64,000 bases of DNA from Escherichia coli. Its GTDB lineage: Bacteria; Pseudomonadota; Gammaproteobacteria; Enterobacterales; Enterobacteriaceae. The translations under genes were made by a program, and so were the position numbers. This document shows positions 11,573 to 37,151 of this stretch, piece after piece. Under the pieces are notes generated by a model. That model worked only from the letters and a program-made list of their open reading frames with translations, did no database searches and was not told where the DNA came from. The stretch lies in the NCBI RefSeq assembly GCF_003018235.1, contig NZ_CP027437.1. One strand, 5' to 3'. Every line of letters starts with the position of its first letter. The stretch's first letter is position 1.

Positions 11573-11618
11573 TGGTGGGTCGTGCAGGATGACTCGCTTC
11601 GCTCGCCCTTCGGGCCGT
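11573..11618 (-). repeat. tRNA-Lys 3'-end-derived fragment repeat, copy A
   Basis: Begins with the 16-nt tRNA-Lys 3' end (incl. CCA) then GATGACTCGCTTCGCTCGCCCTTCGGGCCG; three near-identical copies in the array. Confidence 0.6.
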
Positions 11619-11697
11619 CGCCGCGAGCGGCTCCGTTGTTTCGCTGCGCTCAATTCGAACCTGCTGCAGGTTCGAATCTTTGAGTATCGCAGATAGC

Positions 11698-11724
11698 AAA
11701 AAAGCGCCTTTAGGGCGCTTTTTT
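11698..11724 (-). terminator. intrinsic terminator at 3' end of Lys/Val tRNA operon
   Basis: GCGCC/GGCGC hairpin flanked by A-run and T-run; a second near-identical hairpin at about 11544–11567. Confidence 0.65.
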
Positions 11725-11728
11725 ACAT

Positions 11729-11804
11729 TGGTGGGTCGTGCAGGATTCGAACCTGCGACCAATTGATTAAAAGTCAACTGCTCTACCAACTGAGCTAACG
11801 ACCC
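11729..11804 (-). tRNA. tRNA-Lys (anticodon UUU), distal tandem copy
   Basis: 76-nt exact reverse complement of E. coli tRNA-Lys, ending CCA. Confidence 0.92.
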
Positions 11805-11837
11805 CTTGCGGGATTATGCTGCTTTAATCATTCAGGA

Positions 11838-11913
11838 TGGTGGGTCGTGCAGGATTCGAACCTGCGACCAATTGATTAAAAGTCAACTGCTCTACCAACT
11901 GAGCTAACGACCC
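11838..11913 (-). tRNA. lysQ: tRNA-Lys (UUU)
   Basis: Exact tRNA-Lys sequence; part of perfect 109-bp tandem unit. Confidence 0.9.
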
Positions 11914-11946
11914 CTTGCGGGATTATGCTGCTTTAATCATTCAGGA

Positions 11947-12022
11947 TGGTGGGTCGTGCAGGATTCGAACCTGCGACCAATTGATTAAAAGTCAACTGCT
12001 CTACCAACTGAGCTAACGACCC
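11947..12022 (-). tRNA. lysZ: tRNA-Lys (UUU)
   Basis: Exact tRNA-Lys sequence. Confidence 0.9.
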
Positions 12023-12070
12023 ATACGGGTGTTACCTGAAAGATTTCTACTCGGAACCAATCTTTAAAAT

Positions 12071-12141
12071 TGGTGGGTCGTGCAGGATGACTCGCTTCGC
12101 TCGCCCTTCGGGCCGTTGCTGGCGCAACGTTATCCTTCACG
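12071..12141 (-). repeat. tRNA-Lys 3'-end-derived fragment repeat, copy B
   Basis: Shares tRNA 3' end plus about 55 nt with copies A and C. Confidence 0.6.
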
Positions 12142-12168
12142 CTTAACATCTGAGTTTGATGTTAAAAT

Positions 12169-12244
12169 TGGTGGGTCGTGCAGGATTCGAACCTGCGACC
12201 AATTGATTAAAAGTCAACTGCTCTACCAACTGAGCTAACGACCC
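12169..12244 (-). tRNA. lysY: tRNA-Lys (UUU)
   Basis: Exact tRNA-Lys sequence. Confidence 0.9.
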
Positions 12245-12247
12245 GAG

Positions 12248-12323
12248 TGGTGGGTGATGACGGGATCGAACCGCCGACCCCCTCCTTGTAAGGGAGGTGC
12301 TCTCCCAGCTGAGCTAATCACCC
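12248..12323 (-). tRNA. valZ: tRNA-Val (UAC)
   Basis: Reverse complement of GGGTGATTAGCTCAGCTGGGAGAGCACCTCCCTTACAAGGAGGGGGTCGGCGGTTCGATCCCGTCATCACCCACCA. Confidence 0.92.
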
Positions 12324-12374
12324 GATACTGCGCTGGATACTACAAACTACTTCCACCGAACCCACCGTAATTAG

Positions 12375-12450
12375 TGGTGGGTCGTGCAGGATTCGAACCT
12401 GCGACCAATTGATTAAAAGTCAACTGCTCTACCAACTGAGCTAACGACCC
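12375..12450 (-). tRNA. lysW: tRNA-Lys (UUU)
   Basis: Exact tRNA-Lys sequence. Confidence 0.9.
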
Positions 12451-12452
12451 GG

Positions 12453-12528
12453 TGGTGGGTGATGACGGGATCGAACCGCCGACCCCCTCCTTGTAAGGGA
12501 GGTGCTCTCCCAGCTGAGCTAATCACCC
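12453..12528 (-). tRNA. valT: tRNA-Val (UAC)
   Basis: Exact tRNA-Val sequence. Confidence 0.92.
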
Positions 12529-12563
12529 GATACTACGCTGGATACTACAACTAACTATGTTAG

Positions 12564-12636
12564 TGGTGGGTCGTGCAGGATGACTCGACTTCGTCTCGCC
12601 CTTCGGACCGTTGCTGACGCAACGTTATCCTTCACG
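12564..12636 (-). repeat. tRNA-Lys 3'-end-derived fragment repeat, copy C
   Basis: As copies A/B with a few substitutions. Confidence 0.6.
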
Positions 12637-12663
12637 TTTTACTACCGCTTCCACCTTAGCGAT

Positions 12664-12739
12664 TGGTGGGTCGTGCAGGATTCGAACCTGCGACCAATTG
12701 ATTAAAAGTCAACTGCTCTACCAACTGAGCTAACGACCC
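12664..12739 (-). tRNA. lysT: tRNA-Lys (UUU), promoter-proximal
   Basis: Exact tRNA-Lys sequence; first gene of array. Confidence 0.92.
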
Positions 12740-12903: not shown

Positions 12904-13695
12904 TTACATCGCGTTCAGACGTTTTTGCGCCTGTTTAGCGCCATCAGTACCAGGGTATTTACTGATAACCTGCTGGTATACGGCTTTCGCTTTTGCGGTA
13001 TCACCTTTGTCCTGCATGATGACGCCGACTTTAAACATCGCATCTGCAGCCTTTGGTGACTTCGGATAGTTTTTCACTACCGAAGCAAAATAATACGCCG
13101 CATCATCTTTTTTACCCTTGTTGTAGTTTAACTGACCCAGCCAATAATTGGCGTTTGGCAGGTAAGTTGAATCAGGGTAATTTTTGATGAAATTCTGAAA
13201 TGCCACCATTGCGTCATCCTGGCGGGATTTATCCTGCACCAGCGCAATAGCTGCATTGTAATCCGTGTTTGCATCACCGCTTTTCACCGGCGCGCCAGCA
13301 TTCGCAGTACCAGCATCAGCTGTCGGCGTCGTTGATGCCGCCGCACCGCTTTGATCGCCGCTGGTTGATTGCGCCGCTGCACCACCGCTGCTGAGGCTAT
13401 CGATCTGCAACAGGATCTGCTTTTGCCGCTCCACGACCTGATTCAGTTGATACTGATTTTCCTGAATCTGACCACGCAGGGAATCAATATCGGATTGATT
13501 ATCAGAGAGTTGTTGCTGGAGTTGGGTTAAAAGCTGGCTGTGAGCATTTGAAATACGCTCAAGTTGAGTGACGCGGTCTTCGACCGAGCCTGAGCCGACA
13601 CTACTGATTGGTGCCTGAGCAAAAGCGGCCCAGGGGGCCGCTATACCAACCAGTAACGACAGACTCAATAGTTGATGTCTGAAGTTACTGCTCAT
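12904..13695 (-). CDS. cpoB: cell division coordinator CpoB (YbgF), TPR protein of Tol-Pal system
   Basis: 263 aa; signal peptide, coiled-coil Gln-rich region, C-terminal TPR-like repeats; synteny after pal. Confidence 0.9.
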   Translation of the reverse strand: MSSNFRHQLLSLSLLVGIAAPWAAFAQAPISSVGSGSVEDRVTQLERISNAHSQLLTQLQQQLSDNQSDIDSLRGQIQENQYQLNQVVERQKQILLQIDSLSSGGAAAQSTSGDQSGAAASTTPTADAGTANAGAPVKSGDANTDYNAAIALVQDKSRQDDAMVAFQNFIKNYPDSTYLPNANYWLGQLNYNKGKKDDAAYYFASVVKNYPKSPKAADAMFKVGVIMQDKGDTAKAKAVYQQVISKYPGTDGAKQAQKRLNAM

Positions 13696-13704
13696 GCAAT
13701 TCTC

Positions 13705-14250
<546 letters not shown>

Positions 14251-22640: not shown

Positions 22641-23585
22641 ATGAGTCCTGATAATATCAGTTCTGCTGTCAATCGCTTCTCAGGTTGGCCATCTAATGAT
22701 CCTCTAAAAACAGATAAAGAATCAATGACATCACCCATGACTGTGCAGGTAATAAAGATGATTGCCGCCATCCTTGATCCACATCGGATAGTCGTTGGAA
22801 TCGATACACTTTATACAACGCAGCGCGAAACATTTACCTCAGAGAGTCAACAGCTCATTGAATCAGCATTGCAAACACTTCATGTGATGAATTTAAATAA
22901 CCTGGAAACAAATCTCGATGAGGAAGGTCACTATCTGGCTTTTGGATATAACGTTGACACTCCTGACAGAATAACCGTTTCTGCTTATAATGAAAAAAAG
23001 CCTGGCTGCTATGGTCAATGTCTTTTAATACAGGATGACGAAACAGACTTATTTAACCTGATAAAAGTTAAAATTTTTGAAGCCAGGCATAATTATGTCG
23101 CTCAATTGATGAGCGATCCGGAATTTATGTTCAAATTTAGTTATAGCGCTCAACAAAATAGATTAGAACCTCATCTTCTGGTTCCCACTTATTTCCCTCT
23201 AAAAACAAACGAACCGGTTACGCAAGAGGATGTACTGTTACTTTATCGTTTCTTTAAAATGGATGGTGATTTTAATATATTAACATCAGATGAATACATG
23301 AGTATCATGACACCTCTGATGAAGTGTGAGCGCAGCATCCACGACCACAACAGGTATGTGACGGGCAAAGATACCCTTCTTCTGGACTATCCTCCTTCTG
23401 GTAACCAGATATATTTCCATATTTTTCCTGACGAATCAGCAACACTAGTCCTTTATTTTTCAAACAATGACATTGAATGTTTCGTCTTTGAAAGAGATAT
23501 TCCGAGCCAGTATCGCTTTTTCAAAATGTTTACCAATCTGGCACTGGTTATTGATCAGTTAACCGATGCCAATCAAATACTTTAA
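22641..23585 (+). CDS. hypothetical protein (314 aa), AT-rich, no recognisable motif
   Basis: Long ORF with low GC (about 35–39% by eye) relative to flanks; acidic; no similarity I can recall. Confidence 0.6.
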   Translation: MSPDNISSAVNRFSGWPSNDPLKTDKESMTSPMTVQVIKMIAAILDPHRIVVGIDTLYTTQRETFTSESQQLIESALQTLHVMNLNNLETNLDEEGHYLAFGYNVDTPDRITVSAYNEKKPGCYGQCLLIQDDETDLFNLIKVKIFEARHNYVAQLMSDPEFMFKFSYSAQQNRLEPHLLVPTYFPLKTNEPVTQEDVLLLYRFFKMDGDFNILTSDEYMSIMTPLMKCERSIHDHNRYVTGKDTLLLDYPPSGNQIYFHIFPDESATLVLYFSNNDIECFVFERDIPSQYRFFKMFTNLALVIDQLTDANQIL

Positions 23586-23665
23586 TTTTTATATATTCCC
23601 TGTGGCAAATATTGCCAAACAATGCCCGGGGATTAATTTTTATTACTCACGGAAAGATTTAAATA

Positions 23666-24088
23666 ATGATCCCATCTCAAATCTCTTTCAACACCCTTCC
23701 TGTCAATGCAACATACGCTTCAGAGACAACAGTTGACACACAAAAATTCTCTGACATCCTCTACTCAGCGGGGTGTTCCCTAAAGGATCTGGCTTATCTG
23801 AGCAGATGTCTGGCATCAATACATCCGACTATCGCCAAAAACATTTATGAAACAGAAAATCTCAGCGATCAAAAATTACTGCATATTGATTGCCGTAGTA
23901 CAAATGAAATCAAGATAAATATCTTTTTTGGTCAACAACGAGAAGGATTAATTGAAATTAATTCTGACACTGTCATTTTTCCGATATTGTCTTCATTAAT
24001 TGACTCCGCCATTTCTAAATTTCAACACCAAATCCCCGTTAACGGTTCAGTAAATCCTGACCTATTGTATGAGGATTATACTGATTAA
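23666..24088 (+). CDS. hypothetical protein (140 aa), AT-rich, acidic C-terminus
   Basis: ORF immediately downstream of the 314-aa ORF in same orientation and composition. Confidence 0.5.
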   Translation: MIPSQISFNTLPVNATYASETTVDTQKFSDILYSAGCSLKDLAYLSRCLASIHPTIAKNIYETENLSDQKLLHIDCRSTNEIKINIFFGQQREGLIEINSDTVIFPILSSLIDSAISKFQHQIPVNGSVNPDLLYEDYTD

Positions 24089-24634
24089 ATCCACCCAGTC
24101 GCGAAAATGGCCTGCGTTATTGCCAGACGTAATAAAACTTTTGATTAACGTTACTCGTACTGGTAGCACCTTCATGTACTTTTCTTTTTTACGAAAAATC
24201 AAAAGAGCTAACAAAGGTCATAATTCGCATGAATCATTAATTATTTGTTATTTTCAACATTATTTTTACATTAAGCAGAGATGAATTGCAGTGAAATTCG
24301 ACTTAACTTTTATGAAATGCATTTACTCATGGCTAAAGCCACGTCACAAAAATGCAAATTAGAAGTTGATCACAATTATCTCAATACATCAAATCAAGTT
24401 AATTTTAAAAATTTAACATTCATGACATTAGTTGACATAACACACTGAATTAAAATGAGAATTTGAAAACACACTTTAAACAATCATTTCCCGAAAGACA
24501 TTTTGAAAATAGATCAATTGCAACATTACGGTCAGATAAAGACACTCCTGTGATATTAAACCTGTGCCGTTATGAGCGGCCATAAATACGACGTGTGTAA
24601 CTTATTTTACTCTCTGTCTTACAAAGGATTACCC

Positions 24635-25084
24635 ATGAAGAAAGCAACACTTGTGATTGGCGTTATTGGCGCGGACTGCCATGCAGTAGGCAATAAAGTT
24701 CTGGACCGCGTTTTTAGCAACCATGACTTCAGAGTTATTAATCTGGGCGTAATGGTCAGCCAGGACGAATATATTGATGCTGCCATTGAAACTGGTGCTG
24801 ACGCGATTGTCGTCTCCTCTATCTATGGGCATGGCGATATCGATTGTCTGGGCATGCGCGAACGCTGCATCGAGCGTGGGCTGGGTAACATCCTGCTCTA
24901 TGTGGGCGGTAACCTGGTGGTCGGAAAACATGACTTCGCTGACGTGGAAACCAAGTTCAAAGAGATGGGATTTGATCGCGTCTTTTCCCCAAGTCATGAC
25001 TTAGAAGATGTTTGTCAGCTGATGGCCCACGATATCAACCAACGTCATAACGTTGATACTCGCATTCTTGAAGAGGCAATCTGA
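24635..25084 (+). CDS. glmS: glutamate mutase sigma (B12-binding) subunit
   Basis: 149 aa from [21 protein letters not shown]: canonical DxHxxG cobalamin-binding motif and strong similarity to clostridial MutS/GlmS; RBS AAAGGA. Confidence 0.88.
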
Positions 25085-26472
25085 TGCAAATCGTCTCTGT
25101 CGATATTGGTTCGACGTGGACCAAAGCAGCCCTCTTCACCCGGGAGGGGGACGCGTTAACGTTGGTTAACCACGTTCTGACCCCAACCACCACCCATCAT
25201 CTGGCGAAGGGGTTTTTCTCCAGCCTGGACCAGGTGTTAAACGTAGATGATGCCCTCCCCCTGTTAAACAGTGGTGAGGTTGCATTGAAGTATTCCTCCT
25301 CTGCCAAAGGTGGGCTGGCGGTTGCCGCAATGGGATTGGTGCCTTCTATCACCCTGGAAACCGCGAAAGTAACCGCTCACTCTGCGGGTGCTAAAATTGC
25401 GCAATATTACGCCTACAAGCTGAACCGCCGTGATATCCAGGCACTGGAAGAAACGCAGCCCGATATTCTCTTATTCACCGGCGGCACCGATGGCGGAGAA
25501 GAAAGCTACGGACTGAATAACGCCCGTGTGTTGGCAGAATCCAAACTCGACTGCGCCATTATTTATGCCGGAAACCGGGATATTCAGGACGAGGTGCAGG
25601 AGATCCTCGGGCATAAAGACCTGACCATCGTCGACAACATTCTGCCCGATCTTGACCATCCGAACCCTTTAGCCGCACGCCAGGCTATCTGCGACATATT
25701 CCTTAAACGCATCGTTAAAGGGAAAGGGATGGATGTCGTTGTTGATAAAACAGGCGAAGAACCAATGCCGACACCATGGACGGTCTTTGAACTGGTTAAG
25801 GCAATCAGTAACGTCGATCACAGCTGGAAAGAGTTCATGCTGATCGACATGGGCGGCGCAACCACCGATGTCTATTCCGCCTGTGCCAACACGCTCTCGC
25901 CCGACACTGTTTTACATGGCGTACCGGAACCCTTCGTGAAACGGACGGTGGAAGGCGATCTGGGAATGCGCGTCTCGGCAATGGTGGTTGGTGAAAGTGC
26001 GAAAGAGTTAGTCAATGTGAATTTTGCTCAGCAACCCGCACAGCTGGACGCTTTTTATCATTACCTCCGTCATCTAGTCGCTCATCCCGACTACTTACCC
26101 GCGAATGCAGAAGAAAAATATTTCGATACCATCCTGGCCGGACTGTGTGTGGGTTATGCCACCGAAAGACATGCGGGCACCAAAAAAGAGGTCTGCACCT
26201 GCGTCGGCAATGTCGATTTACAGATGGGACGTGACCTGACAACCGTGCGTAAAGTCGTGGGTTCCGGCGGATGGCTCTCGCGTGCCAGTCAGTTCGATAT
26301 GCATCACTGGTTGAAATACCGCGAGTTAAACGACGACGGTAAACGCATTCTCTTACCGACCGAATTTGAATATTACCGCGATTCCCGGGGGCTATTACCA
26401 CTGCTGGCAAACGTCGCCAGAGTCGATCCACTGGCCGCCGCGCGCACCAGTATTCAATGCTTAACCCTATAA
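25084..26472 (+). CDS. glmL: glutamate mutase accessory protein GlmL/MutL (actin/Hsp70-fold ATPase-like, putative reactivase)
   Basis: 462 aa, translationally coupled (ATG overlaps glmS stop); sits between S and E subunit genes as in Clostridium. Confidence 0.75.
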   Translation: MQIVSVDIGSTWTKAALFTREGDALTLVNHVLTPTTTHHLAKGFFSSLDQVLNVDDALPLLNSGEVALKYSSSAKGGLAVAAMGLVPSITLETAKVTAHSAGAKIAQYYAYKLNRRDIQALEETQPDILLFTGGTDGGEESYGLNNARVLAESKLDCAIIYAGNRDIQDEVQEILGHKDLTIVDNILPDLDHPNPLAARQAICDIFLKRIVKGKGMDVVVDKTGEEPMPTPWTVFELVKAISNVDHSWKEFMLIDMGGATTDVYSACANTLSPDTVLHGVPEPFVKRTVEGDLGMRVSAMVVGESAKELVNVNFAQQPAQLDAFYHYLRHLVAHPDYLPANAEEKYFDTILAGLCVGYATERHAGTKKEVCTCVGNVDLQMGRDLTTVRKVVGSGGWLSRASQFDMHHWLKYRELNDDGKRILLPTEFEYYRDSRGLLPLLANVARVDPLAAARTSIQCLTL

Positions 26473-26490
26473 CAATTAAGGCTGCAATCA

Positions 26491-27936
26491 ATGGAACTTC
26501 GAAATAAGAAATTAACCCATAACGAATTCATGACCGAGCGGCAACAGGTATTGAAAACCTGGGAAACCGGCAAGGATGTTGAAAACTTTGAAGATGGCGT
26601 TAAATACCAACAAACCATTCCTGAGCATAAACGCTTCTCTCTTGCCCTGCTGAAAGCAGACAAGGAAGGTAAAACTCTTAGCCAACCGCGCGCAGGCGTG
26701 GCGCTGATGGACGAACACATCGAACTACTGAAAACACTACAAGAAGAGTGCGATCTGCTGCCGAGCACCATCGATGCATATACCCGTCTGAATCGGTACG
26801 AAGAAGCTGCTGTAGGGATTAAAAAATCCATCGAAGCCGGAACCTCTAAACTGAACGGTTTACCGGTCGTTAACCACGGCGTCGCAGCTTGCCGTCGCCT
26901 CACCGAAACTCTGCAAAAACCGCTACAGATCCGCCACGGCACGCCAGATGCGCGTCTGCTGGCTGAAATCTCGATGGCCAGCGGCTTTACCAGTTATGAA
27001 GGCGGCGGCATTTCCTACAATATTCCGTATGCCAAGCGCGTAACGCTGGAAAAATCGATCCGCGACTGGCAGTACTGCGACCGTTTAATGGGGATGTATG
27101 AAGAACACGGGATCCGCATCAACCGCGAACCATTTGGCCCACTAACGGGTACGCTGATCCCGCCGTTTATCTCGCACTCTATCGCGATAATCGAAGGATT
27201 ACTGGCGCTGGAACAGGGTGTGAAATCTATCACCGTTGGTTATGGACAGGTCGGCAGCCTGACGCAGGATGTCGCGGCGATCCAGTCTCTGCGTGAACTT
27301 GCACACGAATACTTTCAGAACTATGGCTATACCGACTATGAATTAAGTACCGTATTTCACCAGTGGATGGGCGGCTTTCCGGAAGACGAATCGAAAGCGT
27401 TCGCCATTATCTCCTGGGGTGCAGCCGTCGCGGGGATGTCTGGTGCCACCAAAGTCATCACCAAAAGCCCTCACGAAGCCTGGGGAATCCCGACTGCCGC
27501 TGCCAACATTCAGGGGCTGAAAGCCTCCCGCCAGATGCTCAACATGGTCAATGAGCAGAAATTCCCGCCGTGCCCTGCGGTTGAACTGGAAATTGAACTG
27601 ATTAAGAGCGAGGTTCGCGCGGTACTGAATAAAGTGTTCGAACTGGGTAATGGTGATATTGCGCGCGGTACGGTGCTGGCATTTGAAGCGGGCGTACTGG
27701 ATGTGCCATTTGCACCAGCCGCGTGTAACGCGGGCAAAATTCTTCCGGTCCGTGACAACACCGGCGCGATACGCGTACTGGAAGCCGGAGCCGTTCCATT
27801 GCCAAAAGATATTCTCGACCTCCACCACGATTACGTTGCTGAACGCGCACGCTTTGAAGGACGCCAACCGACATTCCAGATGGTTGTAGATGACATCAAT
27901 GCTGTATCCCACAGTAAATTAATAGGAAGACCATAA
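26491..27936 (+). CDS. glmE: glutamate mutase epsilon (catalytic) subunit, methylaspartate mutase E chain
   Basis: 481 aa; N-terminus MELRNKKLTHNEF...QVLKTWETGKDV closely resembles clostridial GlmE/MutE. Confidence 0.88.
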   Translation: MELRNKKLTHNEFMTERQQVLKTWETGKDVENFEDGVKYQQTIPEHKRFSLALLKADKEGKTLSQPRAGVALMDEHIELLKTLQEECDLLPSTIDAYTRLNRYEEAAVGIKKSIEAGTSKLNGLPVVNHGVAACRRLTETLQKPLQIRHGTPDARLLAEISMASGFTSYEGGGISYNIPYAKRVTLEKSIRDWQYCDRLMGMYEEHGIRINREPFGPLTGTLIPPFISHSIAIIEGLLALEQGVKSITVGYGQVGSLTQDVAAIQSLRELAHEYFQNYGYTDYELSTVFHQWMGGFPEDESKAFAIISWGAAVAGMSGATKVITKSPHEAWGIPTAAANIQGLKASRQMLNMVNEQKFPPCPAVELEIELIKSEVRAVLNKVFELGNGDIARGTVLAFEAGVLDVPFAPAACNAGKILPVRDNTGAIRVLEAGAVPLPKDILDLHHDYVAERARFEGRQPTFQMVVDDINAVSHSKLIGRP

Positions 27937-29177
27937 TGAAAATAAAACAGGCCCTTTTTACCGCTGGCTACTCCTCATTCTATTTCGATGACCAGCAGGC
28001 GATAAAAAACGGAGCGGGTCACGACGGTTTTTTTTATACCGGGGAGCCAGTAACACAGGGGTTTAACGCCGTACGTCAGGCCGGGGAGTGCGTATCGGTA
28101 CAGTTGATTCTGGAAAACGGCGCGGTCGCCGTAGGTGACTGTGCTGCCGTACAGTATTCCGGGGCAGGTGGTCGCGATCCACTGTTCCTCGCGGAGCACT
28201 TTATTCCGTTCCTCAACGACCATATCAAGCCATTACTGGTAGGCCGCGATGTGGATACTTTCCTGCCGAATGCCCGTTTCTTCGACAAATTGCGTATTGA
28301 CGGCAACTTGCTGCATACCGCCGTGCGCTACGGATTATCACAGGCGCTGCTTGATGCTACCGCGCTGGCAACCGGCCGTCTGAAAACTGAAGTGGTCTGT
28401 GATGAATGGCAGTTGCCACGCGTGGCGGAATCCATTCCATTATTTGGTCAGAGCGGCGACGATCGATATATCGCCGTCGATAAGATGATCCTTAAGGGCA
28501 TCGACGTGCAGCCCCATGCACTGATTAATAACGTCGAAGAGAAACTGGGCTTTAAAGGTGAAAAACTGCGCGAATATGTCCGCTGGCTGTCGGATCGTAT
28601 TCTGAGCAAGCGCACCAGCGCACGCTACCACCCTACCCTGCACATCGATGTATACGGCACTATCGGTCTGATCTTCGATATGGATCCGCTTCGCTGTGCG
28701 CAATACATCGCCAGCCTGGAAAAAGAAGCGCAAGGCCTGCCGCTCTACATTGAAGGTCCGGTCGATGCCGGTAACAAGCCCGATCAAATTCGCCTGCTGA
28801 CCGCGATTACCAAAGAGCTGACGCGCCTCGGTTCCGGCGTGAAACTAGTGGCCGATGAATGGTGTAACACCTACCAGGATATTGTTGATTTCACCGATGC
28901 CGCCAGTTGCCACATGGTGCAAATCAAAACCCCGGATCTGGGCAGTATTCACAACATCGTCAATGCAGTTCTTTATTGCAACAGCCACAGCATGGAAGCG
29001 TACCAGGGCGGCACCTGCAATGAAACTGATGTCAGTGCCCGCACCTGTGTCCACGTCGCCCTTGCCGCTCGCCCCATGCGTATGCTGGTAAAACCAGGGA
29101 TGGGCTTTGACGAAGGCCTCGATATCGTCTTCAACGAAATGAATCGTACTATCGCGCTGTTGCAGGCTAAGGATTAA
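27936..29177 (+). CDS. mal: 3-methylaspartate ammonia-lyase (methylaspartase)
   Basis: 413 aa; enolase-superfamily motifs (FYFDDQ, AVQYSGAGGRDPLFLA) matching clostridial/Citrobacter MAL. Confidence 0.9.
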   Translation: MKIKQALFTAGYSSFYFDDQQAIKNGAGHDGFFYTGEPVTQGFNAVRQAGECVSVQLILENGAVAVGDCAAVQYSGAGGRDPLFLAEHFIPFLNDHIKPLLVGRDVDTFLPNARFFDKLRIDGNLLHTAVRYGLSQALLDATALATGRLKTEVVCDEWQLPRVAESIPLFGQSGDDRYIAVDKMILKGIDVQPHALINNVEEKLGFKGEKLREYVRWLSDRILSKRTSARYHPTLHIDVYGTIGLIFDMDPLRCAQYIASLEKEAQGLPLYIEGPVDAGNKPDQIRLLTAITKELTRLGSGVKLVADEWCNTYQDIVDFTDAASCHMVQIKTPDLGSIHNIVNAVLYCNSHSMEAYQGGTCNETDVSARTCVHVALAARPMRMLVKPGMGFDEGLDIVFNEMNRTIALLQAKD

Positions 29178-29180
29178 CAA

Positions 29181-30551
29181 ATGGCTCGTTCTTTTAAAGT
29201 CTTATCGCCAACGGCAATCCTCGGGTATGGATTCCCGGAGGAGAGCTTCCGCAAAGCGATGGCAGAATCGCCCGATCTGATCGCCGTTGATGCTGGCTCT
29301 TCCGATCCTGGCCCCCACTACCTCGGGGCGGGCAAACCGTTTACCGCTCGCGCAGGGGTCAAGCGCGATCTGCGCTATATGATCACCGCAGGCGTGCAAA
29401 ATAATATACCGGTGGTGATCGGAACGGCCGGCGGTTCTGGTGCCGCTCCACATCTGGAGTGGTGCCGAGAAATAATTCATGAGATTGCCCGGGAAGAGCA
29501 CCTCTCGTTCTCGATGGCGCTGATCCCGGCAGACGTTGACAAAGCTATCGTCCACCAGGCGCTGGATAACGGCAAAATCACGGCGCTGGATTTTGTCCCG
29601 CCGTTAACCCACGACGCGATTGACGAAAGTACGTATATCGTCGCGCAAATGGGCATCGAACCCTTCCAGCGGGCGCTGAAAGAAGGCGCGCAAGTGGTGC
29701 TGGGCGGGCGCGCTTACGACCCGGCCTGCTTTGCTGCGCTTCCGATCATGCAAGGCTTTGATGAAGGTCTGGCGCTGCATTGTGGGAAAATCCTTGAATG
29801 CGCGGCAATCGCCGCAACGCCCGGCTCAGGCTCTGACTGTGCGATGGGCATCATTGATGACAACGGCTTTACGCTGAAGACATTTAATCCGAAGCGTAAA
29901 TTTACCGAAACGTCAGCGGCTGCACACACACTGTATGAGAAATCCGATCCCTACTTCCTGCCTGGACCTGGCGGCGTGTTGAACCTGAAAGGCTGCACAT
30001 TTAAAGCGGTCAATGACAGCGAAGTGTACGTCAGCGGTTCTAAGCATGAAGAAACGCCGTATTCCCTGAAACTGGAAGGTGCGCGACGGGTGGGCTTCCG
30101 CTGTCTGACCATCGCCGGAACGCGCGACCCGATCATGATCGCCGGGATCGATAAAATCATCGATGAAGTCAAAACCAGCGTTTCGCGTAACCTGTCGCTC
30201 GACGATGACAGCATTCACATCAATTTCCACCTGTACGGCAAAAACGGGGTGATGGGCGACCATGAACCGATGCAAACTGCCGGGCATGAGCTGGGGATTG
30301 TCCTAGATGTAGTTGCGCCGACCCAGGAGATTGCCAACAGCGTTTGCTCGCTGGTGCGCTCTACTATGCTGCACTACGGCTATGAAAACCGCATCGCTAC
30401 CGCAGGCAACCTGGCGTTCCCGTTCTCCCCTTCTGATATCCAGGGCGGGCCAGTATACGAATTTTCCATATATCACCTGATTGAAGCCAACGACGCTCTG
30501 CGTTTTGATTTCCATATTGAACAGGTGACGCCAGAAGGAGTTCAGGCATGA
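29181..30551 (+). CDS. conserved protein of unknown function, AtuA-like N-terminal part (DUF1446-type)
   Basis: 456 aa soluble protein; domain assignment from memory, not verified. Confidence 0.55.
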   Translation: MARSFKVLSPTAILGYGFPEESFRKAMAESPDLIAVDAGSSDPGPHYLGAGKPFTARAGVKRDLRYMITAGVQNNIPVVIGTAGGSGAAPHLEWCREIIHEIAREEHLSFSMALIPADVDKAIVHQALDNGKITALDFVPPLTHDAIDESTYIVAQMGIEPFQRALKEGAQVVLGGRAYDPACFAALPIMQGFDEGLALHCGKILECAAIAATPGSGSDCAMGIIDDNGFTLKTFNPKRKFTETSAAAHTLYEKSDPYFLPGPGGVLNLKGCTFKAVNDSEVYVSGSKHEETPYSLKLEGARRVGFRCLTIAGTRDPIMIAGIDKIIDEVKTSVSRNLSLDDDSIHINFHLYGKNGVMGDHEPMQTAGHELGIVLDVVAPTQEIANSVCSLVRSTMLHYGYENRIATAGNLAFPFSPSDIQGGPVYEFSIYHLIEANDALRFDFHIEQVTPEGVQA

Positions 30552-30865
30552 AACAGTCAATTGTCTCACTGGCGCAAGTCATTCGTTCGAAAAATGCCGG
30601 ACCTTACGAACTGGTTTTAGATATTTTATTTAAAACGAAAGAAAACTATGAGCGAGTTAAATCATCAGGGCAATTAACCCCAGAACTGATCGCGCGCTTA
30701 TATCATGTTGAACCTGACTTTATTCATCGTATTGTCTGGTTTGATCCTTCTAACGCAGTAAAAATCGTCATGCCACGAGATATTATCTCCGGGAATGTAG
30801 GTGACAATGATGTCTATGGCGCACAGCAACATGCACCTTTATTAAATATGAGTTTCGATTTGTAA
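30548..30865 (+). CDS. small conserved protein, AtuA-like C-terminal part (DUF4387-type)
   Basis: 105 aa; start overlaps upstream stop (ATGA), suggesting a two-subunit pair. Confidence 0.5.
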   Translation: MKQSIVSLAQVIRSKNAGPYELVLDILFKTKENYERVKSSGQLTPELIARLYHVEPDFIHRIVWFDPSNAVKIVMPRDIISGNVGDNDVYGAQQHAPLLNMSFDL

Positions 30866-30948
30866 AAATCCGAACACTTTTAGCCAACTGACATCCCGTC
30901 ACTTATTGCAGTTCAACACTTCAGCTATTTGTAAGGTTGTAATAGCAG

Positions 30949-30980
30949 GTAGATGCCTGAATCTCTATTCGGGCATCTAC
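30949..30980 (+). other. stable hairpin between AtuA-like pair and transporter gene
   Basis: Perfect 9-bp stem GTAGATGCC/GGCATCTAC followed by T-rich stretch. Confidence 0.45.
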
Positions 30981-31025
30981 TTCTCCTGATTCTGATTTAT
31001 CGCGGTGCACCTGATGGAGGAAAAA

Positions 31026-32306
31026 ATGAAGAAAATAAGTTTAACCACGATGATTCTTTTGGCGCTCGTACTTGGAATGATTATCGGCGTAGTGCTCAAT
31101 AACACTGCTTCACCGGAAACCGCAAAACTCTATGCGCAAGAAATATCGATATTCACGACGATTTTCTTACGACTGATAAAAATGATTATCGCTCCGTTAG
31201 TGGTCTCTACCCTGGTGGTAGGTATAGCTAAAATGGGAGATGCCAAAGCCCTTGGTCGTATTTTTTCTAAAACACTCTTTTTATTTATTTGCGCCTCATT
31301 GCTGTCAATTGCCTTAGGCTTGATAACAGTAAATTTCTTCATGCCAGGCACAGGAATTAATTTTGTTGCACACGGAGCCGAAACCACCGGAGTGGTCGCA
31401 TCAGAACCCTTTACGCTAAAAGTATTTATTTCGCATGCTTTCCCCACCAGCATTGTCGATGCCATGGCGCACAATGAAATTTTGCAAATCGTAGTGTTCT
31501 CAATTTTCCTCGGCTGTAGCCTGACGGCGATTGGCGAGAAAGGCAGCGCCATCGTTCACGCCTTAGATTCGCTGGCACATGCCATGTTAAAGCTCACTGG
31601 CTACGTCATGCTCTTCGCTCCCCTGACCGTATTCGCTGCTATTTCAGCATTGATTGCTGAACGAGGACTGGCAGTTATGGTGAGCGCCGGGATCTTTATG
31701 GGTGAATTTTATTTCACCATGTTATTACTTTGGGTGCTGCTTATCGGTCTGGCCATCGTTTATGTCGGCCCCTGCATCAGACGCCTGACCCGCGCCCTTT
31801 CGGAACCCGCTCTGCTGGCATTTACCACATCCAGTTCTGAAGCGGCTTTTCCGGGAACGCTTGAAAAACTGGAGCAATTTGGCGTTTCCCCCAAAATTGC
31901 CAGCTTTGTCTTACCCATTGGCTACTCATTTAATCTCGTTGGATCAATGGCCTACTGCTCCTTCGCCACAGTTTTCATCGCCCAGGCCTGCAATATCCAT
32001 TTATCCATCGGTGAGCAAATCACCATGCTGTTGATCCTGATGTTGACCTCGAAAGGAATGGCTGGCGTACCACGCGCCTCAATGGTGGTTATCGCCGCCA
32101 CGCTCAACCAGTTCAATATTCCGGAAGCGGGGCTGATCTTGCTGATGGGCGTTGATCCGTTCCTTGATATGGGGCGTTCCGCGACAAACGTCATGAGCAA
32201 CGCAATGGGCGCTGCGATGGTGAGTCGGTGGGAAGGCGAACATTTCGGCGAGGGTTGTCGGGGTAAAGCATTAAAACCCAATGAATCGAACGTTGCTCTG
32301 CCCTGA
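31026..32306 (+). CDS. dicarboxylate/amino acid:cation symporter (DAACS family, GltP/DctA-like)
   Basis: About 426 aa polytopic protein with GltP/DctA-type motifs; RBS GGAGG before ATG at 31026. Confidence 0.8.
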   Translation: MKKISLTTMILLALVLGMIIGVVLNNTASPETAKLYAQEISIFTTIFLRLIKMIIAPLVVSTLVVGIAKMGDAKALGRIFSKTLFLFICASLLSIALGLITVNFFMPGTGINFVAHGAETTGVVASEPFTLKVFISHAFPTSIVDAMAHNEILQIVVFSIFLGCSLTAIGEKGSAIVHALDSLAHAMLKLTGYVMLFAPLTVFAAISALIAERGLAVMVSAGIFMGEFYFTMLLLWVLLIGLAIVYVGPCIRRLTRALSEPALLAFTTSSSEAAFPGTLEKLEQFGVSPKIASFVLPIGYSFNLVGSMAYCSFATVFIAQACNIHLSIGEQITMLLILMLTSKGMAGVPRASMVVIAATLNQFNIPEAGLILLMGVDPFLDMGRSATNVMSNAMGAAMVSRWEGEHFGEGCRGKALKPNESNVALP

Positions 32307-32413
32307 GGGGGATCTTAAGCAATCAGAAGCCAATGACTACGCATTTTTATAAGCCGGATCATGAAGTTAGACGGCAATTAAGTAACACTAACGTTTAAGG
32401 TGAAAAGTGAAAT

Positions 32414-34065
32414 ATGTCCAAACCATTTATCTGGCAAGAACCGTTTCTACAAAATAAAGACGGTACAGAATATACATTAATTAGCGATCAACATATTACA
32501 GTAACGGAATTAGACGGCGAAGAAGTGATAAAAATCGCTCCTGAAGCATTAACGCTGCTTGCCCGGCAGGCATTTTATGAAGCCTCTTTTTTCTTACGTT
32601 CCGCTCATTTGCAACAGGTCGCCAGCATTCTTAACGATCCGCAGGCCAGTAGTAATGATAAATACGTTGCGTTGCAGTTATTACGTAATGCTGAAGTCTC
32701 AGCAAAAGGGGTATTACCCAACTGTCAGGATACCGGCACCGCAACTATTGTTGCCAGTAAAGGGCAACAGATATGGACGGGAGGTAACGACGCTGAAGCC
32801 TTAAGCAAAGGCATTTACAGTACTTTCCAGGAAAATAATCTGCGCTTTTCACAAAATGCGCCGCTGGATATGTATACCGAAGTCAATACGCAAACCAATC
32901 TCCCGGCGCAGATTGATATCAGCGCTGTCGCTGGTAATGAGTACCATTTTCTCTGTGTTAATAAAGGGGGCGGCTCCGCCAATAAAGCCGCACTTTATCA
33001 GGAAACCAAATCCTTATTGCAACCAGAAAAACTGACCGCATTTTTAATCGAAAAAATGAAATCGCTGGGCACCGCTGCCTGCCCGCCTTACCACATCGCC
33101 TTTGTCGTCGGAGGGCTTTCAGCCGATCAAACCTTAAAAGTTGCCAAGCTGGCCTCTACGAAATATTACGACAATTTGCCCACCAGCGGAAACGAGCAGG
33201 GACAAGCATTCCGTGATATTGAGCTGGAAAAAGTGTTGCTCGAGGTCAGTCAGCAATTTGGTATTGGTGCGCAATTTGGGGGTAAATATTTCGCTCATGA
33301 TATTCGCGTCATTCGTCTGCCGCGTCACGGTGGCTCTTGCCCGATAGCTATGGCGCTCTCCTGTTCTGCCGATCGCAATATCAAAGCAAAAATTAACAAG
33401 CACGGTATCTGGCTGGAAAAACTCGAACACAATCCGGGGCAATATATTCCAGCCTCACTGCGGGAAGAAAATCACGCGCAACATGTACAACTGGATCTAA
33501 ACCGTCCGTTGCGTGACGTGATGCAGGATCTCGCCAGATTACCGGTAGGCACCCGCGTGTCGTTAAGTGGTCCCATCGTAGTGGCACGCGATATCGCCAC
33601 GCCAAAATAAAAGCGCGGCTGGATAACGCCGAACCGATGCCGGATTACCTGAAGCATCATATTGTCTATTACGCTGGCTCGGCGAAAACACCGGAGAACA
33701 TGGCCTGCGGTTCACTGGGTCCAACCACGGGCGGTCGAATGGACGGTTATGTCGATACCTTCCAGGCGGCTGGCGGCAGTCTGGTGATGTTATCGAAAGG
33801 TAACCGCAGCCAGCAGGTCACCGATGCCTGTCACAAACATGGTGGCTTCAATCTGGGTAGTATTGGCGGTGCAGCTGCGTTACTGGCGCAAGAATATGTC
33901 AAAAGTCTGCGTTGCCTGGAATACCCGGAGCTGGGTATGGAAGCGGTGTGGATGATGGAAGTGGAAAATCTGCCCGCATTCATCCTGGTAGATGATAAAG
34001 GCAATAATTTCTTTAGTCAGTTTGAGCAGCAACACCGCTGCGCCAGTTGCCCTGCGGGACATTAA
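32414..34065 (+). pseudogene. fumD: class I fumarate hydratase family (FumD-type mesaconase), interrupted by apparent 1-bp deletion near 33595
   Basis: ORFs 32414..33610 and 33637..34065 are N- and C-terminal parts of one FumA-like protein; C-part frame reads ...[20 protein letters not shown] continuously upstream, offset one base from ...[11 protein letters not shown]. Confidence 0.75.
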
Positions 34066-34074
34066 GGAAAATGA

Positions 34075-34677
34075 ATGGAAGCGCGAATTTCAACTGAACG
34101 GCATGTGCAGCGCCAGCAGAAATTGAAGGAACAGGTCGATACGCGCATCGCGGCGGCGATAGAGAAAAAAGGGATTTTGATTGTTTTCACCGGCAATGGC
34201 AAAGGGAAATCCACTGCCGCGTTTGGTACTGTGACGCGCGCGGTGGGTCATGGCAAAACGGTGGGGGTTGCGCAGTACATCAAGGGGCAATGGGACAACG
34301 GCGAATACAACCTTCTCCAGCCGCTGGGGGTTGAGTTTCATATTATGGGAACCGGTTTTACCTGGGAGACACAGAACCGGCAAGCGGATATCGACGCGGC
34401 GAAAGAGGTCTGGTCGGAAAGCAAACGGATGCTGGCTGACAAGCGTTACGACTTAGTGGTGCTTGATGAGCTGACCTATATGCTGGCTTACCATTATCTG
34501 GATACCGAAGAAGTGATCGCTTCTCTGCAAAACCGCCCGGCACAACAAAGTGTCATTGTCACCGGACGCGGTTGCCACAGTCAGATATTAAAAATGGCGG
34601 ATACGGTCAGCGAAATCCGCCCCGTCAAACATGCTTTTGATAACGGCATTCAGGCCCAGCCGGGTATCGACTGGTAA
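34075..34677 (+). CDS. cob(I)alamin/cob(I)yrinic acid a,c-diamide adenosyltransferase (BtuR/CobA paralog)
   Basis: 200 aa; P-loop GNGKGKSTAAFG and strong similarity to E. coli BtuR. Confidence 0.85.
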   Translation: MEARISTERHVQRQQKLKEQVDTRIAAAIEKKGILIVFTGNGKGKSTAAFGTVTRAVGHGKTVGVAQYIKGQWDNGEYNLLQPLGVEFHIMGTGFTWETQNRQADIDAAKEVWSESKRMLADKRYDLVVLDELTYMLAYHYLDTEEVIASLQNRPAQQSVIVTGRGCHSQILKMADTVSEIRPVKHAFDNGIQAQPGIDW

Positions 34678-34680
34678 TAA

Positions 34681-34712
34681 CTGCGCCTGGCATCCCGCCA
34701 GGCGCAGGTTTT
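34681..34712. terminator. bidirectional terminator between adenosyltransferase gene and LysR gene
   Basis: Hairpin CTGCGCCTGG(catcccg)CCAGGCGCAG followed by TTTT. Confidence 0.6.
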
Positions 34713-35616
34713 ACATCTCCTGCGGTACAACCGATTTCGCCAGCAACCATTCACGAAATTGCTGCAAGTGCGGTGAGTCAGACTTCTCTTCCTGCCACGT
34801 CATAATAAAACGATTACCGGTACGAATAGGCACATCACAGGGGATCACCATATCGCCACTATCCAAATCATGTTGAATAGCGAAACGTGGTAACAGCGCC
34901 ACGCCGAGATTAGAGCGCACGGCGGCAATCAGCATTGAAAGCAAATCGAAACGTGGTCCGTTGTTGACCAGCGGACTGCTAACGCCAGATAAGGCAAACC
35001 ACTCTTCCCAGCCAGTAATACGGGTACTTTGATGCAGAAGTGGTAACTCTGTAAGCAGTTCTGCCACTGACAGTTTTTGATCGGACATTGCAAGCAAACT
35101 GCCGCTGCATACCGGCAAAATCTCCTCATCAAAGAGATATTCTACTTCCGCCCAGGGCGCGCAAAAATTTTCGCGCATAATGACAGCATCGTACTCCCGA
35201 TTAAGAAAATCGCCGTTATTAGCTAAAGAGTGAATATTAACAATAATATCGGGATGTAACTTTGTGAATTCATGTAAATTTGGGATTAACCAGTGGGTAC
35301 TAAACGTAGGATTCACGGCAAGTTCAATAACCTGAACCGTAGGCTGCCAGGTCATAATGGTATTGGTATCGCGTTCCAGCTTATTTAATGTTTCTTTTAC
35401 TATCCCCAGGTAATACTTCCCTGCATCATTAAGAAAAATACGTTTTTTAGAGTGTGAAAATAACGGAGTATGTAAAAATTCCTCCAGCGCACTCACTTGT
35501 CTGAATACTGCACTTTGGGTCAACGCTAACTCCTCTGCCGCTTTGGTATAACTTTCATGACGTGCGACGACCTCAAAAGTCACCAGCAGCTCCGTTTTAG
35601 GTATTTTTCCTCGCAT
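34711..35616 (-). CDS. LysR-family transcriptional regulator
   Basis: 301 aa; N-terminal HTH (TKAAEELALTQSAVFRQVSALE) and LysR substrate-binding domain. Confidence 0.85.
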   Translation of the reverse strand: MRGKIPKTELLVTFEVVARHESYTKAAEELALTQSAVFRQVSALEEFLHTPLFSHSKKRIFLNDAGKYYLGIVKETLNKLERDTNTIMTWQPTVQVIELAVNPTFSTHWLIPNLHEFTKLHPDIIVNIHSLANNGDFLNREYDAVIMRENFCAPWAEVEYLFDEEILPVCSGSLLAMSDQKLSVAELLTELPLLHQSTRITGWEEWFALSGVSSPLVNNGPRFDLLSMLIAAVRSNLGVALLPRFAIQHDLDSGDMVIPCDVPIRTGNRFIMTWQEEKSDSPHLQQFREWLLAKSVVPQEM

Positions 35617-36182
35617 AATGCCGTCCCTTAAAAATAGTTTAAACCATCAAAAATACATTACTTATTACGAAGTAATGGTAACCAAAGCAGCAATAAATAA
35701 TTTATAAGAATCATGATTGACATTTATAACCCAGTAAGCCTGGCGTGACAAATATCTTAATCAGATAATAATAATCCGAAAAGCACAGCGCCTTTCGAAT
35801 TATCCGGAATCACATTAAGTGAAAATTATTAAATTGATATCATTTATCATATCTGTGGATATTATGATAAACAATCAACAAAGATTTTATTTTTGATTTA
35901 TAGCATATCCCTCTAAGAATTTTTGCGATGCTGCAATATCCGGGGTAAAGACCCGATCCTGGCTGACAAATGGCACGACTTGACGATAAGCGGTGAACAT
36001 CGCTTTTGTTGATTTACTTAACGCTACGGTCAAACGCTGGGAAGCCAGTGCATCAGGTAACGATTCGAAATTCGCCGTCGTTCTTATTCGTGGCTTGCGG
36101 TCGGTTGCGGCAATCCACAGTGGCTGTGGTCATGCAGTCAAGCCAGCGGTCAGATTTCGACCGTGGTTAACATTTAAGGCAT

Positions 36183-36281
36183 AAAAAAGGCCATCATACG
36201 ATGGCCAACCATGTCGAAACCGACAGCCCTTCGCCATTCCTGTAGAGGGAAGCGGCGAGGGCTATTTCTTATTACAGATAT
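36183..36281 (-). ncRNA. sdhX: probable 3'-UTR-derived sRNA SdhX (RybD) with intrinsic terminator
   Basis: Region directly after sucD stop ends in hairpin GGCCATCGTATGATGGCC plus U-run on minus strand; identity by position, not sequence match. Confidence 0.45.
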
Positions 36282-37151
36282 TTATTTCAGAACAGTTTTC
36301 AGTGCTTCACCGATATCCGCCAGGCTGCGAACGGTTTTCACGCCTGCGGCTTCCAGAGCAGCGAATTTCTCATCCGCAGTCCCTTTACCACCGGCAATGA
36401 TGGCACCCGCGTGGCCCATACGTTTGCCTTTCGGCGCAGTCACACCAGCGATGTAACCCACAACAGGCTTGGTAACGTGCTCTTTGATGTACGCAGCCGC
36501 TTCTTCTTCAGCGCTACCGCCGATCTCACCGATCATCACGATCGCTTCGGTCTGCGGATCTTTTTCGAACATTTCGAGGATGTCGATAAAGTTAGAGCCA
36601 GGGATCGGGTCGCCGCCGATACCGACACAGGTCGACTGACCGAAACCGTAATCCGTGGTCTGTTTAACCGCTTCATAGGTCAGTGTACCGGAACGGGAAA
36701 CGATACCCACTTTACCCGGTTTGTGAATGTGACCAGGCTGGATACCGATTTTGCATTCACCCGGAGTGATAACGCCTGGGCAGTTCGGGCCGATCATACG
36801 AACGCCAGCTTCGTCCAGTTTCACTTTCACAGTCAGCATATCCAGCGTCGGGATGCCTTCAGTGATGGTGATAATCAGTTTGATGCCTGCATCAATAGCT
36901 TCCAGAATGGAGTCTTTGCAGAACGGTGCTGGTACGTAGATAACAGAAGCGGTAGCGCCAGTAGCAGCAACAGCTTCACGCACGGTGTTGAACACCGGCA
37001 GGCCGAGGTGGGTGGTGCCGCCTTTACCTGGGGTTACGCCGCCAACCATTTTAGTGCCGTATGCAATGGCCTGTTCTGAGTGGAAAGTCCCCTGGCTACC
37101 GGTAAAGCCCTGGCAGATAACCTTGGTGTTTTTATCAATTAAAATGGACAT
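36282..37151 (-). CDS. sucD: succinyl-CoA synthetase alpha subunit
   Basis: 289 aa; CoA-binding motifs. Confidence 0.95.

Follow-up and report, generated by a model that had tools for sequence, protein, structure and literature searches.

Two adenosyltransferases, PduO and EutT, are encoded within operons and regenerate adenosylcobalamin (AdoCbl) (PMC7242693). For the glutamate mutase pathway, Kronen and Berg (2015, PLoS One 10:e0145098; PMC4682846) described a cluster that encodes GlmS, MutL, GlmE, Mal, DUF1446, GltP, FumD, CobA, and LTTR, and their Fig. 5 draws the gene that we consider here as "CobA, cob(I)alamin adenosyltransferase." FumD of O157:H7 is ECs0757, and the cluster was present in 26.5% of Escherichia coli and in 90.6% of O157:H7 (PMC4682846). 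O157:H7 ATCC 700728 had no methylaspartase activity and showed no glutamate-dependent growth, with or without three forms of cobalamin (PMC4682846). When we searched the literature, including transcriptome studies, for the Sakai locus tags ECs0756-0763, we found only this paper. The arrangement of CobA in this island is already known: it is published (PMC4682846) and the gene is annotated in RefSeq (as cobO), so our analysis adds little beyond Kronen and Berg and RefSeq. The only new lead that the sequences suggest is a consistent loss of Arg165 in the lineage of island CobA proteins.

The window that we analyzed is a 64,000-nucleotide stretch of E. coli DNA. Within it, the island cobA is an intact reading frame that runs from ATG to TAA, fills the interval in Table 1 exactly, and encodes 200 amino acids. 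RefSeq has a gene with identical boundaries in E. coli strain 7/2, which is 100% identical at the nucleotide level and is annotated as cobO, "cob(I)yrinic acid a,c-diamide adenosyltransferase"; the protein accession (WP_000388202.1) recurs across unrelated strains. The protein matches the entire Pfam profile CobA_CobO_BtuR (PF02572, profile positions 1-172 of 172, E 4.7e-64, 216 bits; the cut-off is 25.7 bits), and it also scores above the cut-offs of TIGR00708 (cobA, 246.6 versus 167.75 bits) and NF004637 (296 versus 185 bits). Residues 6-200 align to residues 2-196 of the structure of Salmonella CobA (1G5R_A) without any gaps (E 3.4e-88). Judging from these profiles and alignments, we consider it confirmed that the frame encodes a genuine, intact adenosyltransferase of the CobA/BtuR type, as the preliminary description of this DNA had proposed. 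That description named alignment to BtuR as a check and loss of the P-loop or of the BtuR fold as an outcome that would speak against the proposal; both the P-loop and the fold are retained.

Table 1. Features in and around the glutamate mutase operon of the window
Feature	Coordinates	Strand	Basis or remarks
Two hypothetical ORFs (314 and 140 aa) between cydA and glmS	22641..24088		RefSeq label: hypothetical proteins
Region upstream of glmS	24089..24634		545 bp, very AT-rich
glmS, glutamate (methylaspartate) mutase subunit S, cobalamin-binding	24635..25084	+	NF002612 (E 2e-75), PF02310
glmL/mutL, glutamate mutase accessory protein, putative reactivating chaperone	25084..26472	+	TIGR01319 (889 bits); NF040745 (509 bits, cut-off 475)
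glmE, glutamate mutase subunit E	26491..27936	+	TIGR01503 (864 bits)
mal, 3-methylaspartate ammonia-lyase	27936..29177	+	TIGR01502 (539 bits)
atuA, AtuA/DUF1446-family protein	29181..30551	+	PF07287 (E 2.5e-20)
DUF4387 protein	30548..30865	+	PF14330 (E 2.6e-39); 4-nt overlap between its start and the atuA stop
gltP-like, GltP/DctA-like dicarboxylate/amino acid:cation symporter, presumed glutamate transporter	31026..32306	+	PF00375 (E 2.3e-102)
fumD, class I fumarase/mesaconase, frameshifted	32414..34065	+	NF011921, in two ORFs
Shine-Dalgarno-like AAGGA	34064..34068	+	Overlaps the fumD stop; 6 nt 5' of the cobA ATG
Island cobA, CobA/CobO/BtuR-type ATP:corrinoid adenosyltransferase	34075..34677	+	Profiles and alignments
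Hairpin, 11-bp stem (9 G-C pairs), then GTTTTA	34681..34707		3 nt after the cobA stop
LysR-family regulator	34711..35616	-	Convergent with the operon; followed by sucD
Spacer between the LysR gene and sucD	35617..36281		Only short fragments that match the 3' end of rtcB of strain 7/2

Island cobA is the last gene in the order glmS-glmL-glmE-mal-atuA-DUF4387-gltP-fumD-cobA, all on the plus strand (Table 1). The starts of glmS and gltP were taken from RefSeq, by offset from locus L001; a longer open reading frame for glmS begins at 24572. Most junctions in the operon are overlapping or short, and the exceptions are two gaps of 139 and 107 nt. The strong hairpin between the convergent cobA and LysR genes is likely the terminator of the operon. 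An adenosyltransferase shares an operon with an AdoCbl enzyme here: cobA is on the same strand as the other genes, it starts 9 nt 3' of the fumD stop codon, the terminator comes after it, and the linkage is kept across genera (see below). The preliminary description placed the gene directly after a hydratase gene, and this is right except that the hydratase gene (fumD) is split in the window. The same description stated that glutamate mutase needs AdoCbl, which is borne out by the translation of GlmS: it contains DCHAVG, which fits the DxHxxG motif for base-off/His-on binding of cobalamin, and therefore the pathway needs AdoCbl. The operon also encodes a partner of the reactivase type, the GlmL/MutL family protein, whose function is putative (the role is given this way in the legend to Fig. 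4 of PMC4682846). We looked for a dedicated corrin reductase, and none of the nine operon genes matched a flavin or Fe-S reductase in Pfam or NCBIfam.

Between mal and gltP lies a pair of genes, for AtuA/DUF1446 and DUF4387 proteins (29181..30865), that is kept in every island locus that we checked. In the literature that we searched, we found no characterization of DUF1446 or DUF4387. The pair might be involved in the fate of citramalate in these bacteria.

The AT-rich stretch 5' of glmS may represent a promoter region that is silenced; this would agree with the unsuccessful search for inducing conditions in O157:H7. No cobalamin riboswitch or other RNA element that might control the operon was found, either in the whole window at the Rfam gathering threshold or in 23500..36300 at E<=5. 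On the other side of the island, strain 7/2 has rtcB, mngB, mngA, and mngR between the island and sucD, and all four are missing from the window. Elsewhere, the window contains an eight-tRNA array and its three RtT elements, along with a CpoB/ybgF thermometer RNA (11573..12739 and 13666..13804 (-)), which are ordinary features of E. coli and are unrelated to the cobA finding.

Alignment to intact genes shows that a CCC run near 33596 in the window's fumD is one C short. This leaves open reading frames of 398 and 142 amino acids (32414..33610 and 33637..34065), which match positions 1-396 and 409-550 of NF011921. The break lies inside the Fumerase_C domain and not at the natural alpha/beta boundary. 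None of the 1068 complete E. coli genomes that carry this segment has the 1-bp deletion, which rules it out as a lineage marker and leaves a private mutation or a sequencing error as the explanation. If real, the frameshift would interrupt the pathway beyond mesaconate in the source strain, and the pathway may therefore be inactive there.

We found a match to cobA/btuR in 5422 of the 5426 complete genomes of E. coli that we searched, and housekeeping BtuR is in essentially every one. If we define the island copy by at least 95% nucleotide identity, then it is found in 1122 records, or about 21% of the complete genomes, and 1120 E. coli records have the whole fumD-cobA-LysR block. Both the gene and its cluster are those that Kronen and Berg described, at a prevalence here of about 21% as compared to their 26.5%. 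The window differs from their cluster in that fumD is frameshifted and mngRAB and rtcB are absent between the island and sucD. Overall, roughly one in five E. coli, most O157:H7 among them, carries the island, as do many other enterobacterial pathogens.

We examined the genomic context of 84 loci (17 island-type and 67 housekeeping) with tblastn. The 17 island-type copies are 80-100% identical and come from four E. coli loci and from Citrobacter, Raoultella, Lelliottia, Buttiauxella, and Klebsiella. Every one of them lies directly 3' of fumD, with glmL, glmE, mal, atuA, DUF4387, and gltP upstream and the LysR gene downstream; in fact, the LysR gene adjoins cobA in every island locus that we examined. 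All 67 housekeeping copies lie between yciK and rluB. None of the island-type copies that we examined in context stood apart from fumD. Two contigs from Salmonella enterica have the same island order, beside sucD. The earlier assignment of this gene to a glutamate mutase (methylaspartase) operon is thus upheld by all 17 island-type copies, from six genera, and by the two Salmonella loci, where cobA also follows fumD.

The island CobA is 67% identical to E. coli BtuR (83% positives) without any gaps, and the two genes are about 68% identical at the nucleotide level. When we scanned one genome per species, 13 loci from outside E. coli were 80-85% identical to island CobA and all others were at or below 71%. 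Some genomes have one locus of each class, such as those from Citrobacter youngae, C. werkmanii, Lelliottia nimipressuralis, and Klebsiella michiganensis. In a neighbor-joining tree (rooted with more distant CobA/CobO proteins and run without bootstrap), the island copies group together as a single long-branched clade that arises close to the base of the Enterobacterales BtuR radiation. Also, island CobA is roughly equidistant (65-71% identity) from all of the housekeeping copies. We recognized housekeeping BtuR proteins by the yciK-btuR-rluB context, over 72% identity to E. coli BtuR, and Arg at position 165; the island protein has the fumD-cobA-LysR context, 67% identity, and Ser at that position. 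These comparisons of sequence and context mark island CobA as a paralog or xenolog of long standing and not as the ortholog of housekeeping BtuR. A recent origin by duplication of E. coli btuR is ruled out by the moderate identity, the deep separate clade in the unbootstrapped tree, and the equidistance. The preliminary description called the gene a close paralog of the housekeeping enzyme. The paralogy stands, as the listed island-bearing genomes show two matching places per record; the closeness is only moderate, given the 67% identity and the deep lineage in the neighbor-joining tree. The island copies are all intact, at 200 amino acids, and with dN of about 0.1 and saturated dS, we estimate dN/dS at no more than 0.06.

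Compared to Salmonella CobA and E. coli BtuR (PDB 1G5R and 4HUT), the island protein belongs to the same family and length class and aligns without gaps. Like them, it keeps the P-loop, Phe91/Trp93, Arg9, and the other active-site residues. Unlike them, it has four additional residues at the N terminus, Ser, Ala, or Thr in place of Arg165, and several fixed lineage-specific substitutions; and unlike E. coli btuR, which lies between yciK and rluB, its gene closes the glm-mal-fumD operon. The P-loop of island CobA, G40-N-G-K-G-K-S-T47, matches the modified motif GNGKGK(T/S)T and is invariant in all 17 island copies and in 117 cluster representatives of the island type. The position of T42 in CobA is Ser in island CobA, as in most outgroups. 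The equivalents of Phe91 and Trp93 are F95 and W97, and they are present and invariant in the island lineage; the work of Moore et al. in 2012 (linked to PDB 4HUT) is said to have found that this pair gives four-coordinate cob(II)alamin. More broadly, the equivalents of R51, F91, W93, E128, Y131, R161, H182, and D195 (CobA numbering) are invariant in the 17 island copies. The subset of these that we re-examined in the 117 representatives is conserved there too, with the sole exception of one Asp at H182. Arg9 (CobA numbering) is retained in all of the island copies.

Position 165 is different. In island CobA, it is S169 (codon 34579..34581). Arg is found there in 67 of 67 housekeeping BtuR proteins from Enterobacterales and in the two nearest outgroups, while the island copies have S, A, or T (17 of 17) and the island-type cluster representatives have A, S, T, N, or V (117 of 117) and never Arg. 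Among distant CobA/CobO homologs, the position is variable. The other fixed changes in the island lineage are of surface type: R74Y, H111E, D136H, and P70D. We take Arg9 and Arg165 of CobA/BtuR to be flavodoxin-docking residues. In the 2005 work of Buan and Escalante-Semerena, FldA-dependent adenosylation reportedly required both residues, whereas catalysis did not.

We think that island cobA probably encodes a functional CobA, that the gene is transcribed together with the rest of the operon, at its end, and that the enzyme raises the local AdoCbl capacity for GlmS/GlmE. When the operon is on, island CobA would turn imported or damaged cobalamin into AdoCbl, the cofactor of GlmS/GlmE: the Phe95/Trp97 pair would hold cob(II)alamin in a four-coordinate state, the cob(II)alamin would then be reduced to cob(I)alamin, and island CobA would adenosylate the cob(I)alamin with ATP. 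GlmL, the putative reactivase, would release the inactive cofactor, and together with island CobA it would form a cofactor repair cycle, analogous to PduO and PduGH from the pdu operon or to EutT and EutA from the eut operon. As with PduO and EutT, the operon of an AdoCbl-dependent enzyme carries an adenosyltransferase gene along with one for a reactivase-like protein, which here is GlmL. Unlike PduO and EutT, the island enzyme is of the CobA type, which is an unrelated protein family; and unlike pdu and eut, the glutamate mutase cluster lacks microcompartment genes and a corrin reductase like PduS. An operon-linked supply of AdoCbl for glutamate mutase is well supported by synteny. Judged from synteny only, island CobA may be "dedicated" to glutamate mutase, and enzyme activity, co-expression, and a repair role with GlmL would be expected as well.

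The gene might instead be a redundant passenger: a working CobA, brought along by the island, that adds nothing beyond BtuR and has no specific link to glutamate mutase. BtuR, which is in virtually all E. coli (5422 of 5426), could supply AdoCbl, which may make the island copy dispensable, and the two proteins do not differ at any catalytic residue. Also, CobA-, PduO-, and EutT-type enzymes are interchangeable (PMC7242693), and clostridial clusters for glutamate fermentation have been described without an adenosyltransferase (PMC4682846), which implies that an adenosyltransferase in cis is not a requirement of glutamate mutase. However, a useless gene should decay, yet in the 17 island copies and the two Salmonella loci the gene remains whole and keeps its position; dN/dS is at most 0.06, against saturated dS; and every island-type copy that we examined lies next to fumD. 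So we give the passenger explanation little credence. A different concern is that the locus could be silent or decaying: if the island is unexpressed or is being lost, then cobA would have no current function in the source organism. The gene directly upstream is frameshifted, the 545 bp 5' of glmS are very AT-rich and have no recognizable riboswitch, and Kronen and Berg found no expression in O157:H7 (PMC4682846). However, the island cobA in the window is 100% identical to the copy in strains with an intact operon, the frameshift is private (0 of 1068 genomes) and may be a sequencing error, and Kato and Asano, as cited in PMC4682846, measured methylaspartase activity in other enterobacteria. 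On balance, a silent locus seems somewhat doubtful. Because BtuR is ever-present, the clostridial clusters have no adenosyltransferase, and the results for O157:H7 were null, we treat "dedicated" and "required" as candidate descriptions of this enzyme only.

A functional, operon-linked CobA might also be a specialized variant with a changed partner surface, which would use a source of electrons other than FldA or would hand AdoCbl directly over to GlmS. This would account for the Arg that is found in 67 of 67 housekeeping proteins and never in the 117 island-type representatives and for the fixed surface-type changes (R74Y, H111E, D136H, and P70D), and it fits the reported need for Arg165 in FldA-dependent adenosylation. 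But Arg9 is kept in all of the island copies, the variation at position 165 in distant CobA/CobO homologs argues that there is no universal requirement for Arg, and the cluster encodes no alternative reductase. We consider a specialized variant to be unlikely. In its strongest form, island CobA would have diverged so as to abandon docking with flavodoxin A and would rely on another electron donor or act as a chaperone that delivers AdoCbl to GlmS, much as human ATR is an AdoCbl-delivering chaperone for methylmalonyl-CoA mutase; we view this as a long shot. If flavodoxin-A docking has indeed been lost, then island CobA would be the CobA-type counterpart of PduO and EutT and not a spare BtuR.

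The preliminary description took it that E. coli cannot make corrinoids de novo; this is established and is restated in PMC2982820, and it implies that the corrinoid must be salvaged. By co-encoding an adenosyltransferase, the island would bring its own step for activating the cofactor, and in E. coli this step would act on salvaged corrinoids only. The description went on to argue that the island would be confined to corrinoid-rich niches such as the gut. This is overstated: the argument is not specific to the island, and the same cluster is found in Salmonella and Citrobacter, which make B12 anaerobically. Therefore, the island is not tied to B12 auxotrophy. The point about corrinoids is still useful as context for switching the pathway on, for instance with cobalamin or cobinamide supplied in an anaerobic, gut-like setting.

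In the Salmonella enterica islands (L085 and L086; 7244..14845), there is an extra gene, for a glutaminase, between gltP and fumD, and beyond the LysR gene lie genes for a uroporphyrinogen methyltransferase (SumT), an AraC-family regulator with a PocR domain, and an Asp/Glu racemase. Using tblastn, we found no remnants of these four extras in the window. A more distant gltP-fumD-cobA-LysR block is present in Morganella morganii (L062, 6573..19627), where it adjoins cobT-cobC-cobS-cobU-cbiP-cbiO-cbiQ-cbiM. There are no glm or mal genes within 10 kb of the Morganella block, so the pairing of fumD with cobA also exists outside of the glutamate mutase operon, beside genes for the synthesis of B12.
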